Part shown: in pieces, positions 3,385-25,404 of the stretch | Position numbering within the stretch: position 1 is the first letter of the stretch | Layout of the letters: every line of letters starts with the position of its first letter | DNA from: Candidatus Thorarchaeota archaeon | Lineage (GTDB): Archaea; Asgardarchaeota; Thorarchaeia; Thorarchaeales; Thorarchaeaceae | Assembly (NCBI GenBank): GCA_016839605.1 | Contig: JAEOTX010000159.1 | Span: 1-25,934, forward strand | Length of the DNA: 25,934 nucleotides | Direction: 5' to 3' | Position numbers and translations under genes: made by a program | Notes under the pieces: generated by a model | Told to the model about the DNA's origin: nothing | Databases searched by the model: none | What the model saw: the letters and a program-made list of their open reading frames with translations, nothing else

Positions 3385-4779
3385 TCACTCAATTGGCCAT
3401 TTGGGCTGGATATCAATCCCAGCCCTCTCAAGGAGCTTTCCACTATGCTTTAGGGCTCGTTCCATAACAGAAGTTTCATCCAGAGAGAGTAATTTCTTGC
3501 TCCTCATCAGGGGCTTGCCATTCACAATCACTGTGTCCACAGCATGTCCACTTCCAGAATATACTAGGTTCGACACCGGATTAGTGACAGGAGTGAACCC
3601 GAGGTCTTTCATGTCAATGAGAATAATATCTGCAAGCTTTCCGCTCTCTAGGGAGCCAACGGAATCTGATAGTCCCATTGCTTTTGCACCGCCAAGCGTT
3701 GCCATCTCGAGAGCCTGTTCAGCTGTCACTACAAGAGGGTCGTCAACCTTTGCCTTGTGAATGAGAGCTGCAAGACGGGTTTCACGAATCATATCATACG
3801 TGTTGTTACTAGGTCCACCATCGCAACCGAGAGACACTGGTACTTCCATTTTGAGCATCTCAGGCACCCTAGCAAAGCCGGATGCTAACTTCATGTTGCT
3901 TGCTGGGCAGTGAGAAATGTTGGACTGTGAATCTGCAAGTCTTTGGAGGTCTTCATCGTCAAAGTGTATTCCATGTGCAAATACCATATCCGATCCCAAG
4001 AGGTCGTTCTCTTTTGCAAACTCTGTAAGGGTCATATCGAAGTTATCTCTCACATAGCGTACATCATCAATCACTTCACCCAGATGCATGGTCATCCTGG
4101 TCTCCTTTTCTCTTGCAAGCTGGGCCACATCCTGGAACAACTCGGGAGTCACAGCACCAAGAGACCTCAGTCCATACCACACCTGAAGTCGGCCATCTGC
4201 TTTCCCATGCCATTTTGAGTACATTCTGGCGGTCTCATCAAGACAAGCATCCTTGTCCTCGACCATTCCAGGATACATAATGTCCGCACTGTCAGCATAA
4301 CCTGTTGAGTCCATGATTATCTTCGAGAGTGCTCCTCTCATTCCAACCTTCTCAACAGCCTGAGCGATCCCATCAAAGCCGTACCTAGTGTGAATCATAC
4401 ATTCCAAAAAAGAAGTTGTTCCGGTCCGAATCATCTCAGCCATACATAACTCCGCTGATACTCTGCCATCTTCCTCTGTGAAGTTGCCTTGGAGCACCCA
4501 GACATATTTCTTCAGCCAGTCCACGAGTGAAACATCATCTGCACACCCACGAATGAGGGCCTGAGCGAGATGAACATGAGTATCAATCATCCCAGGCATG
4601 ACGATCATGTTCTTGGCGGCTATTACTAGTTCGGCCTTCTCTTTGGCAAGTTCATTAGATTTGCCAACTCTTGTAATCTTCTGGCCTTCAACTAAAACTG
4701 AGCCATCTCTTATGATACGTCGTTTTGGGTCCATTGTAAGGATGTAGCCATTCTCTATCAGAATCGAGTCTACTGACAA
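3385..4779 (-). CDS. Metal-dependent amidohydrolase/deaminase (MtaD/SsnA/Atz-Trz family)
   Basis: PGMIDTHVH (HxH), GTTS, MHLGE (HxxE), AHGIH, HCPASNMKL, LGCDG and GSLESGKLADI motifs. TTG start preceded by GGAGG. Confidence 0.92.
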   Translation of the reverse strand: MSVDSILIENGYILTMDPKRRIIRDGSVLVEGQKITRVGKSNELAKEKAELVIAAKNMIVMPGMIDTHVHLAQALIRGCADDVSLVDWLKKYVWVLQGNFTEEDGRVSAELCMAEMIRTGTTSFLECMIHTRYGFDGIAQAVEKVGMRGALSKIIMDSTGYADSADIMYPGMVEDKDACLDETARMYSKWHGKADGRLQVWYGLRSLGAVTPELFQDVAQLAREKETRMTMHLGEVIDDVRYVRDNFDMTLTEFAKENDLLGSDMVFAHGIHFDDEDLQRLADSQSNISHCPASNMKLASGFARVPEMLKMEVPVSLGCDGGPSNNTYDMIRETRLAALIHKAKVDDPLVVTAEQALEMATLGGAKAMGLSDSVGSLESGKLADIILIDMKDLGFTPVTNPVSNLVYSGSGHAVDTVIVNGKPLMRSKKLLSLDETSVMERALKHSGKLLERAGIDIQPKWPIE

Positions 4780-6794: not shown

Positions 6795-6850
6795 GGTGCA
6801 CTGCCTCGGGAAGGAGGGTCACACGAGAGAGAATGGAGAGGTCAGACGAT

Positions 6851-7342
6851 ATGAAGAACTTACTCGCGATTGATGTCAGCAAATGTACAGGTTGCAGGAA
6901 CTGCGAATTAGGTTGTTCGGCAGTTCAGACAAGGACTTTCAATCCTGCAAGATCGCGGATCAAGATACTGAAGAATGAGATAGAAACCACTATTGTACCT
7001 ATGGTCTGCTTGCAGTGCGAGGTGCCATTGTGTGTCGACGCATGTCCCACAGGTGCAATAGTAAGGAATGAGCACGATACACTCTATGTACACGATGATG
7101 ATTGCATAGGATGTGGGAACTGTGTGACTGCCTGTATCTACGGTGGTATAGAGATCGAACCAATGACTAGGAAAGCCATCAAATGCGACCTCTGCGGAGG
7201 AGACCCAGCATGTGTTAGGGCGTGTGACTATGGAGCCATAGAATATGTTGGCGCGAAGGCTCGTGATTTAACAAAAAGAGCCAATGGAATCAGTGCCTTA
7301 TCTCCTTTCTATAGATATGAAGAGCAGGAGGCTGAACCATGA
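6851..7342 (+). CDS. DmsB/HycB-type 4x[4Fe-4S] electron-transfer subunit of WOR1
   Basis: CTGCRNCELGC, CLQCEVPLCVDACP, CIGCGNCVTACI and KCDLCGGDPACVRAC motifs. Start 6851 follows GGAGAGG (the ORF is open from 6833). ATGA overlap with WOR1. Confidence 0.92.
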   Translation: MKNLLAIDVSKCTGCRNCELGCSAVQTRTFNPARSRIKILKNEIETTIVPMVCLQCEVPLCVDACPTGAIVRNEHDTLYVHDDDCIGCGNCVTACIYGGIEIEPMTRKAIKCDLCGGDPACVRACDYGAIEYVGAKARDLTKRANGISALSPFYRYEEQEAEP

Positions 7343-9270
7343 CATTTCCATACAAAGGATATGCTGGGTATTATGCTGAGGTTGACCTAACCAAAGGCAA
7401 AGTACACAAACGTGAGATGGAGAAGGAATGGGCGAGGCTGTATTTGGGCGGCACCGGGGTAGCAGCGAGAATACTATGGGAAGAAACAGGTCCAGACACA
7501 GATCCACTATCACCTGAGAATGTATTGATTCTCGGGACCGGGCCTCTCACAGGAGTCATGTTCTCACCTTCCGGCAGGATGATGTTTGCAGCGAAAGGAC
7601 CCTTGACCGGCGTATGGGCAGAGAGTCATGTAGGCGGCTTCTTCGGACCTGAAGTGAAATACGCAGGATTTGACTTTGTGATCTTGAAGGGTAGGTCTCC
7701 AAAGCCAGTCTATCTCTTTCTTCGTGATGGAAAAGCGGAGCTGCTTGATGCAAGTCATCTGTGGGGTAAAGAAACCGATGTGACCACTGACATGATTCGG
7801 GAGGAACATAAGGACCCCGAAATTGAAACTGGTATTATAGGGCCCGCTGGAGAGAATGGTGTACTCTATTCATGCATCACTGTTGACCGGTATAGAGCTG
7901 CTGGAAGGGCAGGTCTCGGTACAGTAATGGGATCAAAGAACGTGAAAGCAATTGCTGCGAGTGGATCATTGGGTCTTGAGGCCCACAACATGGACAAATA
8001 TCTTGAGGCCAATGACGTTGAAATGCAGAAACTCTCCGATCCAATCTGGACGGACTCTCTGACATCGCTCAGGAAATACGGTACAACAGACCTTGTGGCC
8101 ATTATCAATGAGATTGGCAGATTGCCTACAAAGAACCATTGGACTGGATTCTACGAGGATGCTGATGACATAGGCCCAGAAATCATTGCAGAAAAGTACC
8201 GCACTGGACAGGAAGCATGTCATGGATGTGAGGTGGGCTGCAAGTATGTCTATCGAGTGAAAGATGGAAAGTTTGCCCATGGGCCTGCAGGAGGGCCAGA
8301 ATATGAAACGATTATGGCCTTCGGCTCAAACTGCCTCAATAATGATATCGAATCTGTCTTTCACATGGGCACACGCTGTGACCTTCTCGGAATGGACACA
8401 ATCTCATGTGGAAAGAGCATTGGGTTTGCCATGGAGCTATGGGAGAAGGGAATAATCACCAAGAAAGACACGGATGGACTTGACCTCTCGTGGGGCAATG
8501 TTGAATCAATGGTAGAGCTTGTAGAGAAGATTGCCAAGCGTGATGGATTTGGTGACGTTCTATCAAAGGGCGTGAGGAAGGCTGCTGAGATAATCGGTGG
8601 AGATGCATGGATGTATGCTGTGCATGTCAAGGGGCTCGAAGCCTCCGGTCAGGATCCTAGAGCCCACCAATCAATTGGACTGACATATGCTACAAATGCT
8701 AGAGGCGCGGACCATTTGAGGAGCCTTTCAAGCCTGGAAGAACTAGGCTATCCAGAGATTGTCAAGGCTCGCTTTGATGATGAAAAGACAGATGCTATAC
8801 TTGACATAATGTCACCTAAGCATAAAGGCGAGGTCGTTTGGGACATTGAGGACCTCTATGCATTGGTGGACAGTGCTGTGATATGTAAGTACGGCACTAT
8901 GTGGCCTCCAGTATACTACTTTGACACATTCAGCAATGTGATATCACCGCTCACTGGAATGGACGAGTGGGCACAGCCTAAGTTCGTCAAACAGGCTGCT
9001 GAACGCATCAATCACTTGAGAAGAGCATACAATCACAGACTAGGAATAACAAGAAAGGAGGAAAACCTCCCAAGAAGGCTCTTGAAGGAGCCTATGCCTA
9101 CCGGACCTTCGAAAGGTGGACTTCCTGATCTCGATGAAATGCTCGACGAGTACTATGACTACAGGGGTTGTGACCGAGAAACCGGCTTCCCAAAGAAGGA
9201 GAAGCTAGAAGAGCTTGGACTTGATTTTGTAGCGAAAGACCTTGGCAAACGAAAGATGCTGGCCAAGTGA
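7339..9270 (+). CDS. Tungsten-dependent aldehyde:ferredoxin oxidoreductase family protein (WOR1)
   Basis: DPLSPEN, GPLTG, IGPAGEN, GRAGLGTVMGSKN, the Fe-S motif CHGCEVGC, GPEYET, GMDTIS, DPR, RGADH and a distal Cys (ICKYG). GGAGG RBS upstream. Confidence 0.95.
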   Translation: MTFPYKGYAGYYAEVDLTKGKVHKREMEKEWARLYLGGTGVAARILWEETGPDTDPLSPENVLILGTGPLTGVMFSPSGRMMFAAKGPLTGVWAESHVGGFFGPEVKYAGFDFVILKGRSPKPVYLFLRDGKAELLDASHLWGKETDVTTDMIREEHKDPEIETGIIGPAGENGVLYSCITVDRYRAAGRAGLGTVMGSKNVKAIAASGSLGLEAHNMDKYLEANDVEMQKLSDPIWTDSLTSLRKYGTTDLVAIINEIGRLPTKNHWTGFYEDADDIGPEIIAEKYRTGQEACHGCEVGCKYVYRVKDGKFAHGPAGGPEYETIMAFGSNCLNNDIESVFHMGTRCDLLGMDTISCGKSIGFAMELWEKGIITKKDTDGLDLSWGNVESMVELVEKIAKRDGFGDVLSKGVRKAAEIIGGDAWMYAVHVKGLEASGQDPRAHQSIGLTYATNARGADHLRSLSSLEELGYPEIVKARFDDEKTDAILDIMSPKHKGEVVWDIEDLYALVDSAVICKYGTMWPPVYYFDTFSNVISPLTGMDEWAQPKFVKQAAERINHLRRAYNHRLGITRKEENLPRRLLKEPMPTGPSKGGLPDLDEMLDEYYDYRGCDRETGFPKKEKLEELGLDFVAKDLGKRKMLAK

Positions 9271-10274
9271 TGCGCATTTCCGAAAAGTCCAAGAGCAAGT
9301 GCAGTTGCAATGACACCATGTCAGGGGGCATTATAGATCTTGGTCCTGCGAAGTTCACAAGTGAGGGATCGAGAAACGCGTTTATTGAGATTGTTTCGGG
9401 ACTCAATCTTAAGCCCCCAGTGATCATCAAGCCCAATTGGTCATCATCATTGATTTTCACAGAGAGGGATATTCTAGATTGGACTCTTTCAGCACTTGAT
9501 GGTGAAGTATTGATCGTGGAGAGTTATGCAGCTTGGAGGACCAGACTGTTCATTGAACATGATGGGCCCCGTGATGAGAAGTTCCTAGAGCTTCTGGGGA
9601 CTCAGAAGAAGAAGGAATTTAGAGCAAATGACAAATGGTTCCTTAGATATTCGGGGATTGATGGTGTTCTTGAGAAACACAATGTAGAGTATCTCAATCT
9701 CTCCGAGGAGCTATGGGCTAATCGAGTATGCGAGCCAAATTTGGTGGCAGATTTTGTCGAGAGTCGGGCGGGAGTCATGGAGAATACAGCACTGTACGGA
9801 CTTGTTCCAGAGCGCTTGTACGATTTGAAGGGCGGCACCTTATTGAACCTGACAAAACCCAAGAGGTCCCTGAAAGCACATCATGTGTCACTCACTCTGA
9901 AGAACATGTTTGGTATGATTCCAAGTCCTTGGAGGGGCAAATATCATGGTGAAAACGATTCACTTCTCGACCAAAACATAGTTGATATCAACAGGATATA
10001 TGGCTCCTTATTCGAAGTGAGAGGGATTATTGAGTCGGTCTTTTCTACGTCTGAAACACTAGACAATTTCCTTCTTCCAGCTATTCATCGAAATCAAGGA
10101 TTGATTTGGGGAGGTTCAGAAACTCTTGAACTGGATGCCCTTGTTTCTTCTCAACTAGGACTCAATCCTAATGATGTAGGCTATCTGAGATTAGCAGCAG
10201 AACAAATCAAGCCTTGGAGTGACGATAGCGTAAAACTTGGAATGACGAATCCTATTGATTTCCCTAAGAGCTAG
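9267..10274 (+). CDS. DUF362-family protein
   Basis: VIIKPNW, IVES, KPK...HVSLTLKNMFG, KYH and LDAL...LG motifs typical of DUF362. GTGA overlap with the WOR1 stop. The true start could be ATG 9270 or 9318. Confidence 0.7.
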   Translation: MMRISEKSKSKCSCNDTMSGGIIDLGPAKFTSEGSRNAFIEIVSGLNLKPPVIIKPNWSSSLIFTERDILDWTLSALDGEVLIVESYAAWRTRLFIEHDGPRDEKFLELLGTQKKKEFRANDKWFLRYSGIDGVLEKHNVEYLNLSEELWANRVCEPNLVADFVESRAGVMENTALYGLVPERLYDLKGGTLLNLTKPKRSLKAHHVSLTLKNMFGMIPSPWRGKYHGENDSLLDQNIVDINRIYGSLFEVRGIIESVFSTSETLDNFLLPAIHRNQGLIWGGSETLELDALVSSQLGLNPNDVGYLRLAAEQIKPWSDDSVKLGMTNPIDFPKS

Positions 10275-10325
10275 CGCTTCGTCCATCGGGTAACTCTTAT
10301 GTTGGGGGACTCATCTCAAATTGGT

Positions 10326-11420
10326 ATGGCAGACCTTAGGATTGAGATAGCTGGAATGCGGTTCAGGAATCCTGTATTCACTGCAGCAGGACCTACCTCA
10401 AGAGATGGGATGACCCTGCTCAATGCTGCAGCTGGAGGCGCAGGAGGACTGGTTGCAAAGACGGTAAGCGTCAAACCAGCGGATGTGCCAAAGCCGAACA
10501 TGGCAGCTCTTGGCAGTGGAAGGCGTGAATCACGACGTGGTATCTTGAATGCGGAACTGTGGAGTGAACTTCCAATTGAGAGATGGTTAGAGAAGGAGTA
10601 TGAGATTGCTCTCGGATCCGGATTGCCTGTCATTGCAAGTGTTGGGTACACACCAGAGGAGGTCTCTGAGATTGCTCCCAAGATCCAAGCGAAAGGAGTG
10701 AATGCAATCGAGTTCAGCACGCACTATGTGGGTGGTCACGTTGAGATTGCTAAGGCGCTTAGAGATTCAGTGGATATCCCTATCTTTGTAAAGCTTAGTC
10801 CTAAGGTAGATGTTGCAAAGATAGCCAAGGACTTGGAGCCTATTGTTGATGGTATTGTTGGGATCAATACGTACGGACCGGTTCTTAGAATTGATATTGA
10901 AACCGGAAAGCCCGTACTCGGCAGTGATTTGGGAGAAGGATGGATGAGTGGAGCATCACTCAAACCTATTGCAATGAGATGTATAGCTGACATTGCTAGA
11001 AGTGTCAGCAAACCCGTAATAGCAGTGGGGGGAGTCACAACAGGAGAGGATGCCATAGAGTTCATGATGGCAGGAGCGTCTGCTGTTGAGGTATGCACGG
11101 CTGCAATTCTGCAGGGTGACACTGTTTATGGCCAGATAGTTGGAGAGATGGGCAAGTGGCTTGATGAACATGGATATGATTCAGTGAATGCCATCAGGGG
11201 AACAGCCCTTAAGCATCTGGACAAGGGAGTAAAACTAAAGCCGCCTCCGAAGGTAGATCTTGAGAAGTGCACAAGATGCGGTTTGTGTCCAAAATCATGT
11301 GTCTATCATGCTATCAATCTAGACAAGGGGAAGGGGACTTTCTCTATTGATTCAGAAAAGTGTGAAGGGTGCGGCATGTGTGTTTCAGTATGCCCATACT
11401 TTGCGCTTAGCCTGGAATGA
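10326..11420 (+). CDS. Dihydropyrimidine dehydrogenase PreA / class 1 DHOD-like FMN protein with C-terminal 2x[4Fe-4S]; atypical active site
   Basis: NPVFTAAGP, AKT, NAELWSE (like DPD NIELISE), VKLSP, INT, SG..LKP and GGV motifs, plus CTRCGLC...C and CEGCGMCVSVCP. Likely start is ATG 10326, with TATA-like CTTATG about 25-30 nt upstream (the ORF is open from 10299). Confidence 0.88.
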   Translation: MADLRIEIAGMRFRNPVFTAAGPTSRDGMTLLNAAAGGAGGLVAKTVSVKPADVPKPNMAALGSGRRESRRGILNAELWSELPIERWLEKEYEIALGSGLPVIASVGYTPEEVSEIAPKIQAKGVNAIEFSTHYVGGHVEIAKALRDSVDIPIFVKLSPKVDVAKIAKDLEPIVDGIVGINTYGPVLRIDIETGKPVLGSDLGEGWMSGASLKPIAMRCIADIARSVSKPVIAVGGVTTGEDAIEFMMAGASAVEVCTAAILQGDTVYGQIVGEMGKWLDEHGYDSVNAIRGTALKHLDKGVKLKPPPKVDLEKCTRCGLCPKSCVYHAINLDKGKGTFSIDSEKCEGCGMCVSVCPYFALSLE

Positions 11421-13734: not shown

Positions 13735-14025
13735 TTGGAGCTCTTGGCTATAGTCACTGTGAAATTCTTTGCAACCGTTCGGGAGGCTGTCGGAACAAGA
13801 AGTACGGAGATTGAAGCGGAAGATATCAAGAGCTTGCTTGAGAAGCTCAAGACGTCATACGGAAAACGGTTCATTGAAACGGTGATTGATGAGGAAACAG
13901 ACAAACTGAAACGATTCTATCAGTGCATGGTCAATGGGAAACGTATCGAACTCCTTGATGGTTACGATACTCTACTACAAGATGGTGATTCAGTAGCTCT
14001 CTTCCCGCCAGTGGGAGGAGGCTAG
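13735..14025 (+). CDS. MoaD/SAMP ubiquitin-like sulfur carrier protein
   Basis: VKFFATVREAVG, MVNG and the C-terminus DGDSVALFPPVGGG. The start may be TTG 13744. Confidence 0.92.
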   Translation: MELLAIVTVKFFATVREAVGTRSTEIEAEDIKSLLEKLKTSYGKRFIETVIDEETDKLKRFYQCMVNGKRIELLDGYDTLLQDGDSVALFPPVGGG

Positions 14026-14058
14026 ACTAGTCAATTGTTGCCAAGGGGGATATTCGAG

Positions 14059-15417
14059 ATGGTAGACCTTGTGGTCAAGAATGCCAAGCTATTGCTCCAG
14101 TCTGGACTAACAAGAGGGGGGCTTGGTGTAGACGCGGGTCAAATCTGCATTATTGCTACCGATGAACATCTTCCAGATGCTTCAACCGTTATTGATGCAG
14201 CAGGCAAGATCGTGATGCCAGGCCTGATAGACGGACATGCTCATCTACATGATCCGACTATGCTAAGTCATGAAGATTTTACCACAGGCTCACGTGCAGC
14301 GGCAGCTGGGGGCGTCACAACTGTGGTTGACATGCCACTCACGAATCAGATTGATTCGCCTCAGGCGGTTGAAGAAAAGATGGCGCAAGGCGAGTCCATG
14401 TCGATTGTGGATTTCACCTTCTATGCAGGTATGTTGAACTCTGACAATTACACAATGATTCCAGCAATGGTTGAGAAGGGGATTGCAGCCTTCAAAGCCT
14501 TCACCTGTGAGCCGTACCCAACGAGTGATGGTGTTCTAATCCAAGCATTGAGTGCTGCATCTGAGTCTGGTGGACATGTTACCCTGCATGCAGAGAATCA
14601 AGGGGTACTTGACGAATTCGCTCGGGAGATGGATGGGGAGTGGGATGCGCCAATAAGCCATTCACTTGCTAGACCCAATATCGCTGAGCAACTCGCTGTG
14701 AAACAGGCTGTGACAATAGCAGAGCAGGTAGGTGGCCATCTTCATATTGCTCATATCACCACCCGAGAGGGATTGGCAGAGGTAGAGCGGGGTAAGCTAA
14801 AGGGGACTATGGTCACTACTGAGGTGTGCCCTCATCACCTAGTCTTTCATAGAGATGAAATGAACCGACTTGGACCTAAAAGCAAGATGAATCCGCCGCT
14901 GAGATCGAGAACAGATAGATCAGCCCTATGGTCGGCGCTGCTCCGTGGAACAATCGATATGACTGTCAGTGATCACGCACCATGCCCCATTGATATGAAG
15001 GAAGCTGGTAATGATGACATTCGCAAGGCTTGGTCAGGTGTTGACGGGATTCAAATGATATTGAGAGTACTCCTCTCTGAAGGCATCAATAAGGGGAGGA
15101 TATCATTCACTCGGCTCTTGAATGTAGCATCTCTTAATCCAGCCAAATTGTTCGGACTCTATCCAAGAAAGGGCGTCCTAGCTGTTGGGGCTGATGCAGA
15201 TTTCGTGATAATAGACCCTACAAGAGAGGAGAAGCTGACATCTGAGATGATGTTCTCGAAGTGTGGCTGGACACTCTACGAAAACATGATGATGAAAGGA
15301 GCGCCAATAATGACGATTGTCCGCGGAACTCCAGTTTATGAGGAGGACAGAATACTAGTCGAGTCAGGTCATGGAAGATTCCAAGCAATGAAAGGTATAG
15401 CGCCATTTGAGGACTGA
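14059..15417 (+). CDS. Cyclic amidohydrolase, allantoinase/hydantoinase-like
   Basis: DGHAH, AAAGGVTTVVDMPL, FKAF (carboxylated Lys), LHAEN, HIAH, EVCPHHL, MNPPLR, SDHAPC, AWSG and GADAD motifs. ATG 14059 follows AGGGGG (the ORF is open from 14035). Confidence 0.88.
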   Translation: MVDLVVKNAKLLLQSGLTRGGLGVDAGQICIIATDEHLPDASTVIDAAGKIVMPGLIDGHAHLHDPTMLSHEDFTTGSRAAAAGGVTTVVDMPLTNQIDSPQAVEEKMAQGESMSIVDFTFYAGMLNSDNYTMIPAMVEKGIAAFKAFTCEPYPTSDGVLIQALSAASESGGHVTLHAENQGVLDEFAREMDGEWDAPISHSLARPNIAEQLAVKQAVTIAEQVGGHLHIAHITTREGLAEVERGKLKGTMVTTEVCPHHLVFHRDEMNRLGPKSKMNPPLRSRTDRSALWSALLRGTIDMTVSDHAPCPIDMKEAGNDDIRKAWSGVDGIQMILRVLLSEGINKGRISFTRLLNVASLNPAKLFGLYPRKGVLAVGADADFVIIDPTREEKLTSEMMFSKCGWTLYENMMMKGAPIMTIVRGTPVYEEDRILVESGHGRFQAMKGIAPFED

Positions 15418-15420
15418 AGA

Positions 15421-15909
15421 ATGACTGAACTGAAGTTTGTATTCGGAGACCCAGAGGTCTGCACAGGATGCATGGTTTGCGTAAATGTATGCAGCATGCG
15501 ATATTCGAAAGTAATTGGCCCTAGCTGGTCGCGTGTCAGAGCAGTAAGGATAGAACCAGGGCTTGATTTTCCCCTTTTTTGTAGAAACTGTGAGGACGCT
15601 CCATGCATGGCTGCCTGTCCAAACGAGGCGATAAGTCGAACTTCAAAGGGTGTTGTCATTGTGAACAATAAGAAGTGTACGGGCAGTGGTGAGTGTGTCA
15701 AGGCATGCCCCTATTATGCGATCAGACTTCATCCAGACACTGAGAAGGCAATCAAATGCATCCAATGCGGTGCATGTGTGGACAGATGCCCTGTGAACGC
15801 AATATGGATTACTACTGAAAATGAACTGAACGAGAAAGATGCGGATGGTAGACTCTCATCTCTGTATGAAAAACATGAGACTGAGCTATACAACAAGGAG
15901 GAGATATGA
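15421..15909 (+). CDS. DmsB-type polyferredoxin subunit of WOR2
   Basis: CTGCMVCVNVC, CRNCEDAPCMAACP, CTGSGECVKACP and CIQCGACVDRCP motifs. ATGA overlap with WOR2. Confidence 0.92.
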   Translation: MTELKFVFGDPEVCTGCMVCVNVCSMRYSKVIGPSWSRVRAVRIEPGLDFPLFCRNCEDAPCMAACPNEAISRTSKGVVIVNNKKCTGSGECVKACPYYAIRLHPDTEKAIKCIQCGACVDRCPVNAIWITTENELNEKDADGRLSSLYEKHETELYNKEEI

Positions 15910-17789
15910 TGAAGGGAATCGGAGGAAACAATCTCTGGATTGACCTGACAAAGGGTGAGATAGAGAAGCGACCAGTTGAAGAGGAGATGGTCAATGAGTA
16001 TCTTCTCGGAGCGGGATATCTCTCTCGGGTTCTTTACGACAACATACCTGTTGGAATAGATCCCCTTTCTCCCAAGAATGTGCTTGGAATTGCCACAGGA
16101 CTACTCACGGGATCGATGTTTCCACAGGCTTCGCGTCATGTAGTAGCTGCATTATCACCCCTCACCGATGTGTGGGGAGAGTCGCATGCAGCAGGATTCT
16201 GGGGACCTGAGCTAAAATTCGCAGGCTATGACGCCATCATCTTCACGGGGGCATCATCAGATCCAGTATATCTCTACATCCAGAATGACACTGTGGAGCT
16301 TCTGGATGCTTCCGATATATGGGGTACATCCGTCTTTGAAACTGATGACTGGATTCGAGAGAAGCATAGCAAGCGAGCAAGAGTGCTCTCGATAGGGCAA
16401 GCAGGAGAAAACAAGGTACGATTCGCAGCTGTGATGAACGACCGAGACCGTGCATCTGCCAGGTCAGGACTTGGAGCTGTAATGGGATCTAAGGGACTCA
16501 AAGCAATCTCTGTCAGAGGCACTGGAAAGCTAGAAGTCGCGGATCCGAAGGACTATCTCAATCAGATGGACATCTTCTATGAGAGGATGCTGGCAAATCC
16601 ATTCACAAAAGAGCGAGCCAAGTATGGAACTACCAATCTTGTTGAGTTGATGAATCACATTGGGAGACTGCCTAGCTATAACATGCGGCAGGGTGTCTTT
16701 GAGGGCTTTGAGAAGATCAGCGGGCATACCATCACGGAGAAACACTTAGTGAAACCTCGGTCGGACTGGAGCTGTCTACAGAGATGCGGTAGATACACGA
16801 GGGTAAAAGAAGGGCCATACAAGTACATTGGCGGCTCACCGGAGTTCGAATCACAATCCTCTCTTGGCTCTCGATGTGGAAACGACAACTTGGAATCAGT
16901 TCTATTCAGTCATCACCTGGCCAACATGTACGGTATGGATACAATCTCACTTGGTGCAACTATCTCATGGGCGATGGAGGCATGGGATGAAGGACTATTG
17001 ACGTCTGAAGACACTGATGGTATTGATCTCGCCTGGGGTAATCATGAAACAGTTGTCAAGCTCACTGAGATGATAGCTCTGCGAGAGGGTTTTGGTGATA
17101 TTCTCGCAGAAGGTAGTGTCCGGGCAGCCGAGAGGATTGGTCGTGGAACTGAGAAATTCGTTATGACGGTTAAGAAGCAAGAGATTGCTGGGCAAGAGCC
17201 ACGTGCTCAAAAGTCAATGGGACTAGCTGCCGTCACAGCAGCTAGAGGGGCAGACCATCTCTATGCATTCCCCGTTCTTGATGAGGCTGGATTTGACAAG
17301 GAGATCAAGGAGCGTTTTGGTGAGCAGTATCTACCTGAGATGGCCGACCGTCTGAATCCAAAATACAAGGGAATTATGGTGAAAGAATGTGAGGACTTCA
17401 TGGTAATGGTCGAGAGTGTTGGCCTGTGTAAGTATGGAACGCAGATTCCTCCCGAATTCTACTATGATGATGTAGCACAAGCACTAAGAATTCACAACGG
17501 CCTAGATCTTACTAGTGAGGAACTTCAGACTATAGGAGAACGAATTGTGAATCTTAATCGACTGTTCAACGTTGCCCGTGGCGTCACACGAAGCGACGAC
17601 CAACTTCCTGATAGATTGACGAAGGAAGGAGCACCAAAGGGACCATCGCCTGGTCAGGTGGTGGAACTAGACCAGATGCTTGACGAGTATTATGAACAAA
17701 GGGGCTGGAATTTAGAAAATGGTTTCCCCACAATGGATACTCTGAAACGCTTAGGTCTTGAAAAGGAAGGAAAAGCAGTCATCAAGTAG
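15906..17789 (+). CDS. Tungsten-dependent aldehyde:ferredoxin oxidoreductase family protein (WOR2)
   Basis: DPLSPKN, SPLT, IGQAGEN, RSGLGAVMGSKGLKA, SPEFES, GMDTIS, EPR, RGADH and LCKYG motifs. GGAGGAG RBS upstream. Confidence 0.95.
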   Translation: MMKGIGGNNLWIDLTKGEIEKRPVEEEMVNEYLLGAGYLSRVLYDNIPVGIDPLSPKNVLGIATGLLTGSMFPQASRHVVAALSPLTDVWGESHAAGFWGPELKFAGYDAIIFTGASSDPVYLYIQNDTVELLDASDIWGTSVFETDDWIREKHSKRARVLSIGQAGENKVRFAAVMNDRDRASARSGLGAVMGSKGLKAISVRGTGKLEVADPKDYLNQMDIFYERMLANPFTKERAKYGTTNLVELMNHIGRLPSYNMRQGVFEGFEKISGHTITEKHLVKPRSDWSCLQRCGRYTRVKEGPYKYIGGSPEFESQSSLGSRCGNDNLESVLFSHHLANMYGMDTISLGATISWAMEAWDEGLLTSEDTDGIDLAWGNHETVVKLTEMIALREGFGDILAEGSVRAAERIGRGTEKFVMTVKKQEIAGQEPRAQKSMGLAAVTAARGADHLYAFPVLDEAGFDKEIKERFGEQYLPEMADRLNPKYKGIMVKECEDFMVMVESVGLCKYGTQIPPEFYYDDVAQALRIHNGLDLTSEELQTIGERIVNLNRLFNVARGVTRSDDQLPDRLTKEGAPKGPSPGQVVELDQMLDEYYEQRGWNLENGFPTMDTLKRLGLEKEGKAVIK

Positions 17790-17803
17790 GAGTGGACATC
17801 ACA

Positions 17804-18298
17804 ATGGGGAAATTTCAGAGCAAGATGGATATCACAGTCTATGAGCACTTCAAGGACAAGAGCACTAAGCTCGTGTTTCTAATCCGCGAGTTGGAGCAGG
17901 TCTTAGGTAAGGAAAAAGCACACGAGATCGTTTCCAACTGGGCTGAGAAAAATGCAGTGAAAGACGTAAGCACCGTTGTGGACTCCTTAGATAGGCCGGT
18001 AGAATCCTTTGATGATGTTAAGGTGCTACTTAAGCACTGGGTAGATGCGCTCAACAAAGACAACATGGAGACTGTCGAGATTACTGAGGAAACGTCCACT
18101 AAATCTGTCTGCATAGTCACTGAGTGTATCTACGCTAAGGTATTCAATGACCTTGACGCACCAGATCTGGGATATTTGCTTCATTGCAAGCAAGACTTTC
18201 CAGCAACACCAGCCATTCATCCAAATATGAGATTGAAACGGTCTAAGACCGTTATGGAAGGACACGACTGCTGTGACTTCGAGTACTACTGGGAGTAA
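17804..18298 (+). CDS. L-2-amino-thiazoline-4-carboxylate (ATC) hydrolase-like protein
   Basis: VTEC.YA, LGYLLHC..D and LKRSKTVMEGHDCCDF, the family's Cys pattern. ATG 17804 follows GGAGTGG (the ORF is open from 17792). Confidence 0.8.
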   Translation: MGKFQSKMDITVYEHFKDKSTKLVFLIRELEQVLGKEKAHEIVSNWAEKNAVKDVSTVVDSLDRPVESFDDVKVLLKHWVDALNKDNMETVEITEETSTKSVCIVTECIYAKVFNDLDAPDLGYLLHCKQDFPATPAIHPNMRLKRSKTVMEGHDCCDFEYYWE

Positions 18299-22500: not shown

Positions 22501-25404
22501 CTACTCCAGGAGTAAGGAAACTCTGCCGGGCAAAGCGAATCGAGCCTTGTTCTGCGGGTCATAGTCTGGTTTTGCTGCGTCGTGGATGGTCACATCCATG
22601 CCAATCTCTGAAGAGATGTATGTTGCCGAGTCCTTCAGTACTGCCATCTCTTCCTTGGCGTTCATTGAATGGTCCCACAGTCCATTTTCTTTCGCGATTC
22701 TGTCCACGATTCCCTTGACTTGTTTCCCATGAGTTCGAAAATCTGGATTTGACATCAGGTGTTTCATGATGTCTCCAACAATCAAAGAGATTTCCTTGGT
22801 TCTGATGCTATTCATTGCTTGGAACATCCATTCTGGAGCCACATAGATGTGTACAGCAGACGCCTTCTTGTCCTTCAGCAATTTGACAATCTCCCGGATA
22901 TCGCGCACAGTAGACTCTACAACCGTATGTGCCATCTCAGCAGACGGGTCTATCAATTTCTTGTCCGCCTTTGGCCAATCAGCCAAGGACACGTATCCAT
23001 CTTGGTTCATCTTGGACCAGAACTCCTCGCTGACATGAGGGGTCATTGGAGCTATCAAACGAACCCACCGATCACACACGTAAGCCATTGTACCATCGCG
23101 TTCCTCTTTAGAAACCTCGGTGCGATTCACGTAATGATTGACTGTTCGAATCATCTCCGACATGACTGTTATCGCATAGTCTCGGATACGGAAATTATCC
23201 ATGTAGTCAGTACACTCTTGGACAATTGAGTTTACACGAGAAAGAATCCATCTAGTGATCCCTGTTGGCTTGTCTTTCTTTCTGTATATCTTAGGTGTCT
23301 TCGTGGAATATTTCTTCATGATTTCGCTGAACTGTCTGATACGATTCCTTACAGCTGGAACATCGCGCTCGCGCCAGTCCATGATACTTCCGGGCTCTGC
23401 AGCTGATACCGCATAGGTTCGGAAAACATCAGCGCCGTATTTCTTGGGCATCTCTCCGAGAGGCAATGTGTTGCCCTTGCTCTTGGACATCTTCCCTCCC
23501 TCCATGTTCATGTGTTCATTCAGACTGATGCATTGAATCCAATGTTTCTTCGGGAATATCGCAGCATGATGAAAGATTGCGAAGCTCAAGTGGTTTGATA
23601 TGTGGGAGGGAGCTGTGTGTCGCTGGTCATTTGGATACCAATAGAGGAATTCATCGCGCATCGAATTCAGTATGTCGGATGAAACCTCTGTTTCCTGTGC
23701 GACCTTCTCAGCTTTTCCTTTTCCTAGAAAAACATAGTCAAAGAAACTCAGTGTTAGTTGTTCTGGCTTCAGCTTGTTCTGATTGATCTTGTGAGCAATC
23801 GTGTAGAATGCCATATAGATAGTTGAGTCGGATAGAGCTTCTATAATCCACTCGGGATCAAAGGGCAGCGGAGTCCCAATGCCTCTTCTTCTTGCACACG
23901 GTCTCTGGGCTAACCAGTCGAAAGTTGACTCGAACATGATCCTGAAGTTTTCAGGAATTATGCCCATCATTTTCAAAGCATCCCAAGCCTTATCCTTCCA
24001 CCCTGGGCTCTCATAATCCAAGAACCATTGCCCAGCCAAAACTGCGACTTGTACATCAGTTCCACACTTGCAGACAACAGGTCGTTCGTCAGGTTCGTAG
24101 AACACGTCACCTCGATTCTCCGACTTCAACCATTTAATGATATCATCCTTGACTCCGCTTACTTGTCTTCCAGAGAATGGCCCACAGTTATCCATCATGA
24201 CTCCTTCATAGAACTCAGCCTTGTAGACTTCTTGAGTCGCCTCTTCCAACTTCTCCTTGTCTTTCTGTGACGATACTCCCAGCTTCTCAACAACATCCTT
24301 TGTTAGAAACTCGCTCCCTCCCTCGATTTCAATCATAATGACGACATCAATCCCTCGGACGTCATCAGCAGATATCCCATAGGCTTGCAATTCCGTTGGA
24401 TCTTCCCATAAGTCCCGTAAGGCGATATAGTCGAAGGGTGCATGACCAGGGACAGAATAAACAACTCCGGTTGCATTGTCTACATCCACGAAATCTGCAG
24501 GAAGAATCGGTATGTTTCGACCATCGTGAATCGTCTGGCACGACTTGCCGACAATCTTGGAGCCAGGAAATGTGTCCAAGATCTTAACTTCCTTAGCCTG
24601 CAGTTTCAACTTCTCTGCAGCTGTGGATGAAACAATCCAAAGCTCACCATTAACGTCAGCTTTGACGTACTTTGCTGTCGGATTGATCCACAAGTTGGTT
24701 ATGCCAAAGGTTGTTTCAGGTCGCAAGGTCGCTGCTACTAGGAATCCATCCTCAAAGGGATATTTGAGGCTAGTGAACTCCTTGACTTTCGCAGTATTAC
24801 CCTCCTTTATGTCATCCTCACCGACTGGATTTCCGCAATTGGGACAATACAACAGCGGATGAGCGCCCTTTTGGATGTAGCCCGAGTCCATCAGCTTTTG
24901 ATACTGCCACGTGATAAAGCGGTTATAGATATCATCACCCGTTGTGAATTTGCGACGCCAGTCTATGCTGTAGCCGAGTGCTTTGAAGTCAGCCGAGATT
25001 GTTTCTGTGAAGAACAAGACTGTAGCCCAAGGATCTGTGAACTTCTTCACCTGGGCGTTGACCTCTTCCTCACTATCTAGATAGACGCGAAGATCGCGTC
25101 TGTACTGTTCAATGGCATCCTCATCCCCTCTTTTGACTCTGTCCACCATACCGAAAATGGGTGTGCCTGTAATATGAGATGCCATTGGATACAGAACGTT
25201 GAACCCCTGCATTCGCTTGTATCGCGCAATTAGATCTCCCACGGTGTAGGTTCTTCCATGTCCCATATGCAATGCACCGTTGGGGTATGGATAAGGCACA
25301 GTCAGGAAGAACTTCTTTCGGTTTGGGTCGGGATCTACTTCGAAGATACGATCCTTCTCCCATTGTTTCTGCCACTTCTTCTCAATCTTGGCTGACTCGC
25401 TCAT
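22501..25404 (-). CDS. leuS: Leucyl-tRNA synthetase, archaeal/eukaryotic type
   Basis: PYPYPNGALHMGH (HIGH), IDWRR, the CP1 editing domain (ATLRPET, GVVYSVPGHAPFD), LSDSTIYMA, KMSKSKGN and the archaeal C-terminus KARFALPGR. Confidence 0.97.
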   Translation of the reverse strand: MSESAKIEKKWQKQWEKDRIFEVDPDPNRKKFFLTVPYPYPNGALHMGHGRTYTVGDLIARYKRMQGFNVLYPMASHITGTPIFGMVDRVKRGDEDAIEQYRRDLRVYLDSEEEVNAQVKKFTDPWATVLFFTETISADFKALGYSIDWRRKFTTGDDIYNRFITWQYQKLMDSGYIQKGAHPLLYCPNCGNPVGEDDIKEGNTAKVKEFTSLKYPFEDGFLVAATLRPETTFGITNLWINPTAKYVKADVNGELWIVSSTAAEKLKLQAKEVKILDTFPGSKIVGKSCQTIHDGRNIPILPADFVDVDNATGVVYSVPGHAPFDYIALRDLWEDPTELQAYGISADDVRGIDVVIMIEIEGGSEFLTKDVVEKLGVSSQKDKEKLEEATQEVYKAEFYEGVMMDNCGPFSGRQVSGVKDDIIKWLKSENRGDVFYEPDERPVVCKCGTDVQVAVLAGQWFLDYESPGWKDKAWDALKMMGIIPENFRIMFESTFDWLAQRPCARRRGIGTPLPFDPEWIIEALSDSTIYMAFYTIAHKINQNKLKPEQLTLSFFDYVFLGKGKAEKVAQETEVSSDILNSMRDEFLYWYPNDQRHTAPSHISNHLSFAIFHHAAIFPKKHWIQCISLNEHMNMEGGKMSKSKGNTLPLGEMPKKYGADVFRTYAVSAAEPGSIMDWRERDVPAVRNRIRQFSEIMKKYSTKTPKIYRKKDKPTGITRWILSRVNSIVQECTDYMDNFRIRDYAITVMSEMIRTVNHYVNRTEVSKEERDGTMAYVCDRWVRLIAPMTPHVSEEFWSKMNQDGYVSLADWPKADKKLIDPSAEMAHTVVESTVRDIREIVKLLKDKKASAVHIYVAPEWMFQAMNSIRTKEISLIVGDIMKHLMSNPDFRTHGKQVKGIVDRIAKENGLWDHSMNAKEEMAVLKDSATYISSEIGMDVTIHDAAKPDYDPQNKARFALPGRVSLLLE

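Follow-up and report, generated by a model that had tools for sequence, protein, structure and literature searches.

A flavin reductase of a Thorarchaeota archaeon with a Ser-Thr-His-Tyr loop in place of the catalytic cysteine loop: a UacX-type candidate oxopurine-ring reductase

We analyzed a 25,934-nucleotide stretch of DNA from a Candidatus Thorarchaeota archaeon (contig JAEOTX010000159.1; referred to below as the window) that encodes a flavin mononucleotide (FMN) and iron-sulfur (Fe-S) reductase of the dihydroorotate dehydrogenase (DHOD) and dihydropyrimidine dehydrogenase (DPD) family. This reductase lacks the catalytic cysteine loop of the family and carries instead a short E-x-S-x-H-Y loop (SxHY) that marks nearly all members of a clade of archaeal and bacterial proteins. 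Clostridial members of this clade take the place of the 2,8-dioxopurine reductase YgfK in otherwise complete gene clusters. On balance, we consider the protein probably to be an oxopurine-type ring reductase that is fed electrons through its Fe-S clusters. The narrower proposal that its substrate is 2,8-dioxopurine itself is tentative, and we infer the substrate of the archaeal subclade from gene context.

A sequence-only reading of this gene had proposed that the catalytic loop ELNxSCP is replaced by a short EFSTHY loop without cysteine. Translation of positions 10710-10739 (+) gives EFSTHYVGGH, which contains no Cys. In a phmmer alignment to pig DPD, the segment AIEFST---HYVG..G-HVE pairs with a 26-letter DPD stretch, so that the query loop is Cys-free and ≈13 residues shorter. 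The AlphaFold2 model agrees that the loop after strand 4 is short, with a strand at residues 136-140, a 6-residue loop at 141-146, and a helix from residue 147. The substitutions Asn to Ser, Ser to His, and Cys to Tyr, which had been aligned by eye, were reproduced without gaps by MAFFT when the genome's own PyrD and PreA were included, and place S140, H142, and Y143 at Asn668, Ser670, and Cys671 of pig DPD, respectively. The FMN motifs named in the same reading were also found in the alignments, as K54/T55 (AKT), K165 (KLSP), N190/T191 (INT), S217/G218, and G244/G245, as was the DPD-like NAELWSE motif, where N84-x-E86 corresponds to DPD N609/E611. Two tryptophans set the pocket apart: Trp88 replaces DPD Ile613 and is specific to the SxHY clade and its sister clade, and Trp215, which is invariant across the SxHY clade, stands where canonical enzymes have Gly. 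In DPD, Cys671 is the proton donor to C5 of uracil, and the C671A mutant is inactive (reviewed in PMC8097209). Because this residue is needed in DPD and is absent here, the ordinary DPD mechanism cannot operate in the Thorarchaeota reductase.

The reading frame and the Fe-S cysteines are intact. An FMN barrel (DHO_dh, PF01180) spans residues 13-286 (E-value 7e-31; 107.9 bits compared to a cut-off of 27). Homologues begin at MADL, the ATG at 10326 (residue 10 of the longest open reading frame), as judged by BLAST coverage, and residues 1-10 are modeled with low confidence (pLDDT 59); the true start is therefore probably this ATG, which would leave the first nine residues untranslated. The AlphaFold2 model, which was built from 103 sequences, has a pLDDT of 95.8. 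Its top Foldseek match is pig DPD (TM score 0.82), and matches to class 1A and 1B DHODs have target-normalized TM scores of about 0.8 and query-normalized scores of 0.67-0.70. By NCBIfam models, the reductase falls below the cut-offs for PyrD (PRK07259, 165.4 vs 269; TIGR01037, 162.7 vs 270; archaeal PyrD, 119 vs 330) and for PreA (182.3 vs 335). A Pfam scan detected no FAD/NAD(P)H (Pyr_redox) domain in the protein, and no PreT/GltD-like NAD(P)H subunit was present among the open reading frames of the window, to which the search for PreT was confined. Members of the family are currently annotated as "dihydroorotate dehydrogenase" or "4Fe-4S binding protein".

Few parts of the protein are as strongly conserved as the loop. 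E-(F/Y)-S-T-H-Y is present in all 121 proteins at 55-92% identity to the query. STHY is invariant in the 117 full-length homologues, as expected if it is kept in close homologues and is not a product of decay; only 58 of 373 columns are invariant in this set, and STHY forms one of only four runs in which at least four consecutive columns are ≥99% conserved. This conservation lies far beyond chance. In a 20-member alignment of SxHY proteins, all sequences have Tyr143 and nearly all have Ser140 and His142; the Thr position varies among T, I, V, L, and C. A survey of loops in the rows of the IQ-TREE phylogeny found the Tyr replaced in a few divergent clade members.

A phmmer search of the full library revealed a large PreA-like radiation with three kinds of loops: canonical Cys-containing loops, a short E-L-V-S-Y loop, and the E-x-S-x-H-Y loop. 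Trees were built with FastTree and with IQ-TREE (LG+C20) on the barrel with the loop columns excluded. In the IQ-TREE phylogeny, the query, the clostridial proteins of loci L193 and L197, and every other sampled SxHY protein fall into a single clade of 45 rows with an SH-aLRT support of 99; the corresponding FastTree clade has 57 rows and a support of 94. The E-L-V-S-Y group branches as its sister (95); PyrD and the Cys-loop PreA/PydA clade (99) are separate from both. These relationships sustain the earlier suggestion of a distinct subfamily. Within it, the archaeal SxHY proteins form a subclade of their own (FastTree support 95). Rooting on PyrD puts the Cys-bearing forms at the base of the tree, which fits loss of the loop. 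The SxHY and E-L-V-S-Y clades may have the Tyr in common. One E-L-V-S-Y gene, in an Oscillospiraceae genome (L016:5600-13600), is flanked by SsnA-like, GltD/YgfK-C-terminal-like, and cyclic amidohydrolase genes; this arrangement resembles a "split YgfK" and possibly represents another heterocycle reductase.

The reductase is not the only member of its family in the genome, which is ≈80% complete. The same genome encodes a canonical PyrD (ELNLSCPH) with an adjoining PyrK-like gene and a canonical Cys-bearing PreA (ELNVSCPHG, with a 2x[4Fe-4S] tail) that is split between two contig ends (L083/L084). Assignment of the reductase as the DHOD or DPD of this organism was therefore rejected, and the presence of both canonical enzymes implies that it is a third, specialized paralogue. 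The split PreA gene adjoins a class-III aminotransferase gene and likely belongs to an ordinary reductive pyrimidine pathway apart from the island described below.

Evidence for a purine-derived substrate comes from the Clostridia. Bona fide SsnA, a marker of the reductive urate pathway, was searched for in 300 Clostridia genomes, and 13 loci were taken. Full-length YgfK is encoded beside or near SsnA in eight of these loci, and a ninth has a partial YgfK-like match. Three loci have no YgfK and instead encode an SxHY protein (ELSTHYVGTD), whose gene lies directly beside ssnA in two cases and ≈6 kb downstream in the third. The order of genes at L193 is sigma-54 regulator, YgeY (683 bits), YgeW (787), carbamate kinase, diaminopropionate ammonia-lyase (YgeX, 673), SsnA (697), SxHY protein, D-hydantoinase (621), and the selenium-dependent xanthine dehydrogenase (XDH) homologue Se-XDH (1445). 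Every pathway enzyme, including carbamate kinase, scores above its NCBIfam cut-off, and there is no YgfK within 20 kb. The clostridial SxHY proteins are 46-47% identical to an archaeal member (L132) and 51-54% identical to the query over the barrel. Moreover, 18 of 19 pocket and FMN positions are identical between the Thorarchaeota and clostridial proteins, which points to identical or closely similar substrates. Together, the replacement of YgfK in complete 2,8-dioxopurine clusters and the separate PyrD and PreA of the Thorarchaeota genome make a different, purine-derived substrate, as the sequence-only reading had suggested, the best-supported interpretation.

Links to SsnA-type genes recur elsewhere in the clade. 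The SxHY gene directly follows an SsnA-like gene in Hadarchaeum, and a Nitrososphaeria SxHY gene is also adjoined by one. In a Chloroflexia metagenome-assembled genome (L013:7001-12504), a 303-residue STHY protein that lacks an Fe-S domain is encoded between bona fide SsnA and bona fide YgfK, and a 464-residue PreA-like protein comes next; Chloroflexota have been stated to lack YgfK and UacX (Li et al., 2025; PMC12507026). This one urate-type cluster thus holds three candidate reductases, of which the PreA-like protein has a long Cys-free loop (ELSMMHGEPG...). A gene beside an SsnA-like gene in an Oscillospiraceae genome (L173) was considered as a UacX candidate and rejected, because it encodes a Cys-bearing PreA accompanied by a PreT gene.

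The clostridial arrangement matches a group that has been named twice. "DHase X1" was defined by hyuA, ygeW, ygeY, ssnA, and xdh neighbors (Barba et al., 2013; PMC4016543), and the same group later received the name "UacX", coined for the PF01180 enzyme that stands in for YgfK in Clostridioides difficile, has no FAD domain, and was proposed to act as a ferredoxin-dependent 2,8-dioxopurine ("yanthine") reductase (Li et al., 2025; PMC12507026). The Thorarchaeota reductase resembles UacX/X1 in combining a PF01180 FMN domain with Fe-S clusters in the absence of an FAD/NAD(P)H module, and it shares a clade with clostridial proteins that occupy the place of YgfK beside SsnA, hydantoinase, and YgeW/YgeY/YgeX/XDH, the criterion used in these papers. 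It differs in that the archaeal gene lies in an operon with a polyferredoxin and an AOR-family oxidoreductase rather than beside a Se/Mo xanthine-dehydrogenase homologue and bona fide SsnA, and in that its loop is four residues shorter (STHYVGGH compared to STHYVGTDxxP). Neither the missing Cys nor the STHY motif is mentioned in the searchable text of PMC12507026 or PMC4016543.

YgfK has been shown experimentally to reduce 2,8-dioxopurine (10.1101/2025.04.24.650524), and its N-terminal domain has been described as of unknown function (Liu et al.). In one of two studies of the enzyme, its activity depended on coupling to SsnA (Li et al., 2025; PMC12507026). By hhalign, this domain aligns to the SxHY proteins with a probability of 98.4%: the invariant YgfK motif T-L-S-T-x-H-G-C-P (VTLSTMHGCPP in Escherichia coli YgfK, L205:13061-16159) falls on E-x-S-T-H-Y, and the Ser-Thr pair falls on S140-T141. 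The comparison with YgfK that the earlier reading had called for thus recovered Ser-Thr at the same positions. The likeness exists at the profile level only, and a BLASTP search of the query against the YgfK N-terminal domain is nearly blank (E-value 0.013). Other barrel motifs are recognizable in the YgfK domain as well (AAGP, KTV, N-x-E-W, K-L-N-P, T-N-T, M-S-G, and S-G-G). Both kinds of dioxopurine reductase, proven or proposed, thus carry Ser-Thr at the positions of the Asn-Leu of pyrimidine enzymes, and a His follows within two residues. The YgfK-type NAD(P)H:2,8-dioxopurine oxidoreductases (DOPOR) of E. coli and Clostridium sporogenes resemble the reductase in the Ser-Thr pair, in the N-x-E motif, and in being interchangeable with the UacX type in gene clusters. 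By contrast, YgfK (TIGR03315) comprises about 1000 residues, compared to 373 for the reductase, and contains GltD-like FAD/NAD(P)H and Fe-S domains; its His comes one residue later than H142, so that it aligns with Y143; and it keeps the loop Cys (S-T-x-H-G-C-P), which the SxHY clade does not.

Among the pyrimidine enzymes, PreA/PydA (pig DPD domains IV-V and E. coli PreA) is similar in its FMN barrel, its C-terminal 2x[4Fe-4S] domain, and the equivalents of N609, E611, N736, and T737. It differs from the reductase in having Cys671, Ser670, and Asn668 in a loop that is ≈13 residues longer, in lacking Trp at the Ile613 and Gly positions, and in its placement in a separate clade; the reductase scores below the PreA cut-off and has no PreT gene beside it. 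A ferredoxin-dependent PydA (PydAc) works and provides a precedent for a ferredoxin-fed member of the family (PMC7332683). Class 1 DHODs (PyrD 1A/1B) share the fold and FMN motifs with the reductase, which has neither their catalytic Cys nor a PyrK and scores below their cut-offs.

These results are consistent with the following mechanism. Electrons would enter singly through the two [4Fe-4S] clusters of the reductase, supplied in this archaeon likely by the polyferredoxin-AOR pair of the same operon and in bacteria by ferredoxin. They would reduce FMN, and FMNH2 would transfer a hydride to the sole carbon of the oxopurine ring that bears hydrogen, so that 2,8-dioxopurine or a close relative, as the likeliest substrate, would be dearomatized, as uracil is by DPD. 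The neighboring amidohydrolase, cyclic and/or SsnA-like, would then open the reduced ring. Tyr143, perhaps with His142 as a relay, could supply the second hydrogen, or a proton could go to a ring nitrogen, followed by tautomerization; in either case, a thiol directed at carbon would be unnecessary. Conservation is what points to this possible proton-donor role of Tyr and His. Old yellow enzymes combine a flavin hydride with a Tyr proton donor and a His that binds the substrate. For His142 and Tyr143, for which the sequence-only reading had suggested such chemistry, this could serve as a mechanistic analogy only; old yellow enzymes are a different family, and the reductase has no Pfam match to it. 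A short, rigid Ser/His/Tyr loop together with W88 and W215 would suit a bicyclic substrate.

Several observations weigh against an oxopurine substrate in the archaeal proteins or against the comparison on which it is based. The window contains cyclic and deaminase-like amidohydrolases and no bona fide SsnA, YgeW, YgeX, or XDH. The top SsnA-like gene of the genome scores 340 bits, below the cut-off, and lies on a separate 6-kb contig among uninformative neighbors. Archaeal islands carry OTC-like, ThrC-like, and allantoinase-like enzymes instead of YgeW, YgeX, and HyuA equivalogs, which implies that the pathway, and with it the substrate, may differ. Since YgfK retains its Cys, the substrate does not require a Cys-free mechanism. 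The label "UacX-type" rests on the context criterion of the published work and not on comparison with C. difficile UacX (Q181U4). A UacX assay is described in the Methods of PMC12507026, and no result is given in its main text or in one supplementary text. In the literature searched, we found no published activity for any member of the SxHY clade.

The most serious alternative is that the substrate is another N-heterocycle, such as an oxopurine isomer or other purine, a 5-substituted pyrimidine, or a hydantoin-type or pterin-like ring, and that the archaeal AOR-linked subclade has a substrate of its own. The archaeal islands without bona fide YgeW/YgeX/HyuA/SsnA equivalogs and the separate archaeal subclade in the FastTree phylogeny favor this idea, as does the sister E-L-V-S-Y clade, whose similar neighbors show a radiation that explores several pockets. 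Because the pocket nearly matches that of the clostridial proteins from complete 2,8-dioxopurine clusters, Ser-Thr is common to YgfK, and SsnA-like genes adjoin the gene in Hadarchaeum and Nitrososphaeria, we regard a different heterocycle as unlikely, although it retains appreciable weight. A diaphorase-like role, in which the reductase would have no heterocyclic substrate and would serve as the electron-output subunit of the AOR, passing aldehyde electrons to a soluble acceptor, is improbable. It would account for the conserved polyferredoxin-AOR-flavoprotein order, with genes overlapping or close, and for the absence of an NAD(P)H module, and AorC holds the analogous position in the AorABC gene order. 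However, members of the clade occur without a nearby AOR in bacterial urate clusters and in Hadarchaeum, and a mere relay would not be expected to have DPD pocket residues and STHY among its most conserved parts.

The fold and FMN motifs alone would also allow an ordinary dihydroorotate or dihydropyrimidine dehydrogenase with another acid/base residue, and in class 2 DHODs this residue is Ser rather than Cys. This reading is very improbable given the canonical PyrD with its PyrK-like neighbor and the Cys-bearing PreA in the same genome, the scores far below the cut-offs (165 vs 269 for PyrD and 182 vs 335 for PreA), the separate clade, and the replacement of the pyrimidine-binding Asn668 as well. 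The reductase could instead be a decaying or catalytically dead paralogue, since it has lost a residue without which DPD does not work (C671A is inactive; PMC8097209). The invariance of STHY in 117 homologues led us to reject decay; the motif is kept across archaeal and bacterial phyla, and the intact frame, intact Fe-S cysteines, and high-confidence model leave this explanation with almost no credibility. Thus, an oxopurine-type ring reductase remains the interpretation that we favor.

The surroundings of the gene in the window are listed in Table 1. AOR1 and the DUF362-like gene overlap by 4 nucleotides, and a gap of 24-51 nucleotides separates the latter from the reductase gene. Public sequencing runs listed no RNA data set with this operon, which carries no information on its expression. 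Only the closest Thorarchaeota relatives (6 loci) have the DUF362-like gene, which is not part of the core; in other Thorarchaeota, its place is taken by a CLC chloride channel gene with CBS domains or by a small reverse-strand open reading frame. The amidohydrolase (Amidohydro_1) at 3385..4779 was rejected as SsnA, because it scores 404 bits as 5'-deoxyadenosine deaminase compared to 216 as SsnA. The cyclic amidohydrolase scores below the NCBIfam cut-offs for allantoinase (347.7 vs 357.85) and D-hydantoinase (326 vs 393). At other loci, FlpD/MvhD-like genes stand in place of the ATC-hydrolase-like gene.

Table 1. Features of the Thorarchaeota window and of the reductase encoded in it
Feature	Position	Strand	Basis or remark
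UacX/X1-type FMN + 2x[4Fe-4S] reductase gene	10299..11420	+	Open reading frame, 373 residues; Pfam, AlphaFold2, fold match
N84-A-E86-L-W88-S-E pocket motif (DPD N609-I-E611-L-I613)	10548..10568	+	Alignments
E138-F-S140-T141-H142-Y143, end of strand 4 and short loop replacing ELNxSC(P) of DHOD/DPD	10710..10727	+	Alignment, model, conservation
N190-T191, pocket residues kept (DPD N736-T737)	10866..10871	+	Alignments
G-W215-M-S-G flavin/substrate-side loop	10938..10952	+	Alignments
C-terminal 2x[4Fe-4S] ferredoxin domain	11250..11408	+	Pfam, residues 318-370; eight Cys, all invariant
Amidohydrolase, DadD/MtaD/guanine-deaminase/SsnA superfamily	3385..4779	-	Top match 5'-deoxyadenosine deaminase; recurs in islands
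Polyferredoxin (Fer4_11 type), proposed electron wire	6833..7342	+	Pfam/NCBIfam; overlaps AOR1 start by 4 nt
AOR1, AOR-family tungsten-type oxidoreductase	7339..9270	+	Pfam AFOR_N and AFOR_C; closest solved structures are AORs
Weak DUF362-like gene between AOR1 and reductase	9267..10274	+	26 bits vs cut-off 24
ThiS/MoaD-like small protein	13735..14025	+	Pfam; recurrent in islands
Cyclic amidohydrolase (allantoinase/hydantoinase/dihydroorotase-like), candidate ring-opening partner	14035..15417	+	Recurs in 42 loci
Second polyferredoxin (15421-15909) and AOR2 (15906-17789)	15421..17789	+	Pfam, AOR tree
ATC-hydrolase-like gene after AOR2	17792-18298		Conserved in several Thorarchaeota loci
967-residue open reading frame	22501-25404	-	Open reading frame list only

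The linkage to AOR genes extends well beyond this genome. Synteny was counted at 91 loci encoding a protein of the reductase's BLAST cluster, one of which (L015) encodes a canonical Cys-loop PyrD. Of the 91 loci, 40 have an AOR gene immediately upstream on the same strand, and in a further 23 it is one gene away; these loci come from Thor-, Hermod-, and Promethearchaeota, Nitrososphaerota, Thermoproteota (Korarchaeia-like), Bathyarchaeota, and one Coprothermobacterota genome. The Fer4-AOR pair that precedes the reductase gene is likewise conserved in different phyla. In a tree of AORs (L129-L162), the island AORs form three orthologous lines according to their position before the reductase, after the reductase, or after the cyclic amidohydrolase; AOR1 belongs to the first of these lines and AOR2 to the last. 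The existence of three positional lines suggests that the AORs have three distinct conserved functions. The islands also contain genes for SsnA-like and deaminase-like amidohydrolases, the cyclic amidohydrolase, OTC-like carbamoyltransferases, and a ThrC-like pyridoxal phosphate (PALP) enzyme, and in some lineages for a Bmp/PnrA-type nucleoside ABC transporter. No XDH-family molybdenum enzyme (PF02738) was matched in the ≈80%-complete genome; PF02738 is present elsewhere in three other island-bearing genomes, two archaeal and one of Coprothermobacterota.

A bolder extension, which we consider rather doubtful as a whole, is that many anaerobic archaea and Coprothermobacterota run a reductive purine pathway on tungsten AORs instead of Se/Mo XDH homologues, with electrons exchanged between the AORs and the SxHY reductase. 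Up to three positional lines of AORs would hydroxylate or dehydroxylate purine carbons, and polyferredoxins would link them directly with the Cys-less reductase, possibly in one complex, so that a conversion such as hypoxanthine to a dihydro-dioxopurine would be internally redox-balanced. The SxHY loop would then provide a carbon- or nitrogen-protonation mechanism, based on a Tyr/His dyad, that is new to the DHOD/DPD family. A literature search for AORs with DHOD-like enzymes or with purines in archaea returned nothing relevant.

Because the family was named as X1 in 2013 and as UacX in 2025, it is not categorically new. In the papers that could be searched, the substitution of E-x-S-x-H-Y for the Cys loop throughout the clade, the Ser-Thr pair common to YgfK, the large archaeal subclade, and the fixed coupling of this subclade to AOR-family genes appear to be undescribed. 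The DHOD/DPD family serves as a textbook example of a flavin that transfers a hydride in partnership with a Cys (or Ser) acid/base. A widespread clade that has no acid/base Cys and has a Ser-x-His-Tyr loop instead makes the delivery of the second hydrogen a concrete problem that experiments can address. In practical terms, the signature of E-x-S-x-H-Y, N-x-E-x-W, and G-W-x-S-G separates UacX-type purine-ring reductases from PyrD and PreA, and the "unknown" N-terminal domain of YgfK is tied to the same fold and Ser-Thr motif. In Asgard and other archaea, the enzyme is tied to tungsten-type enzymes of the AOR family. If it is true that these AORs act on purines, this would be new chemistry for the AOR family and a route of anaerobic nucleobase recycling in sediments.

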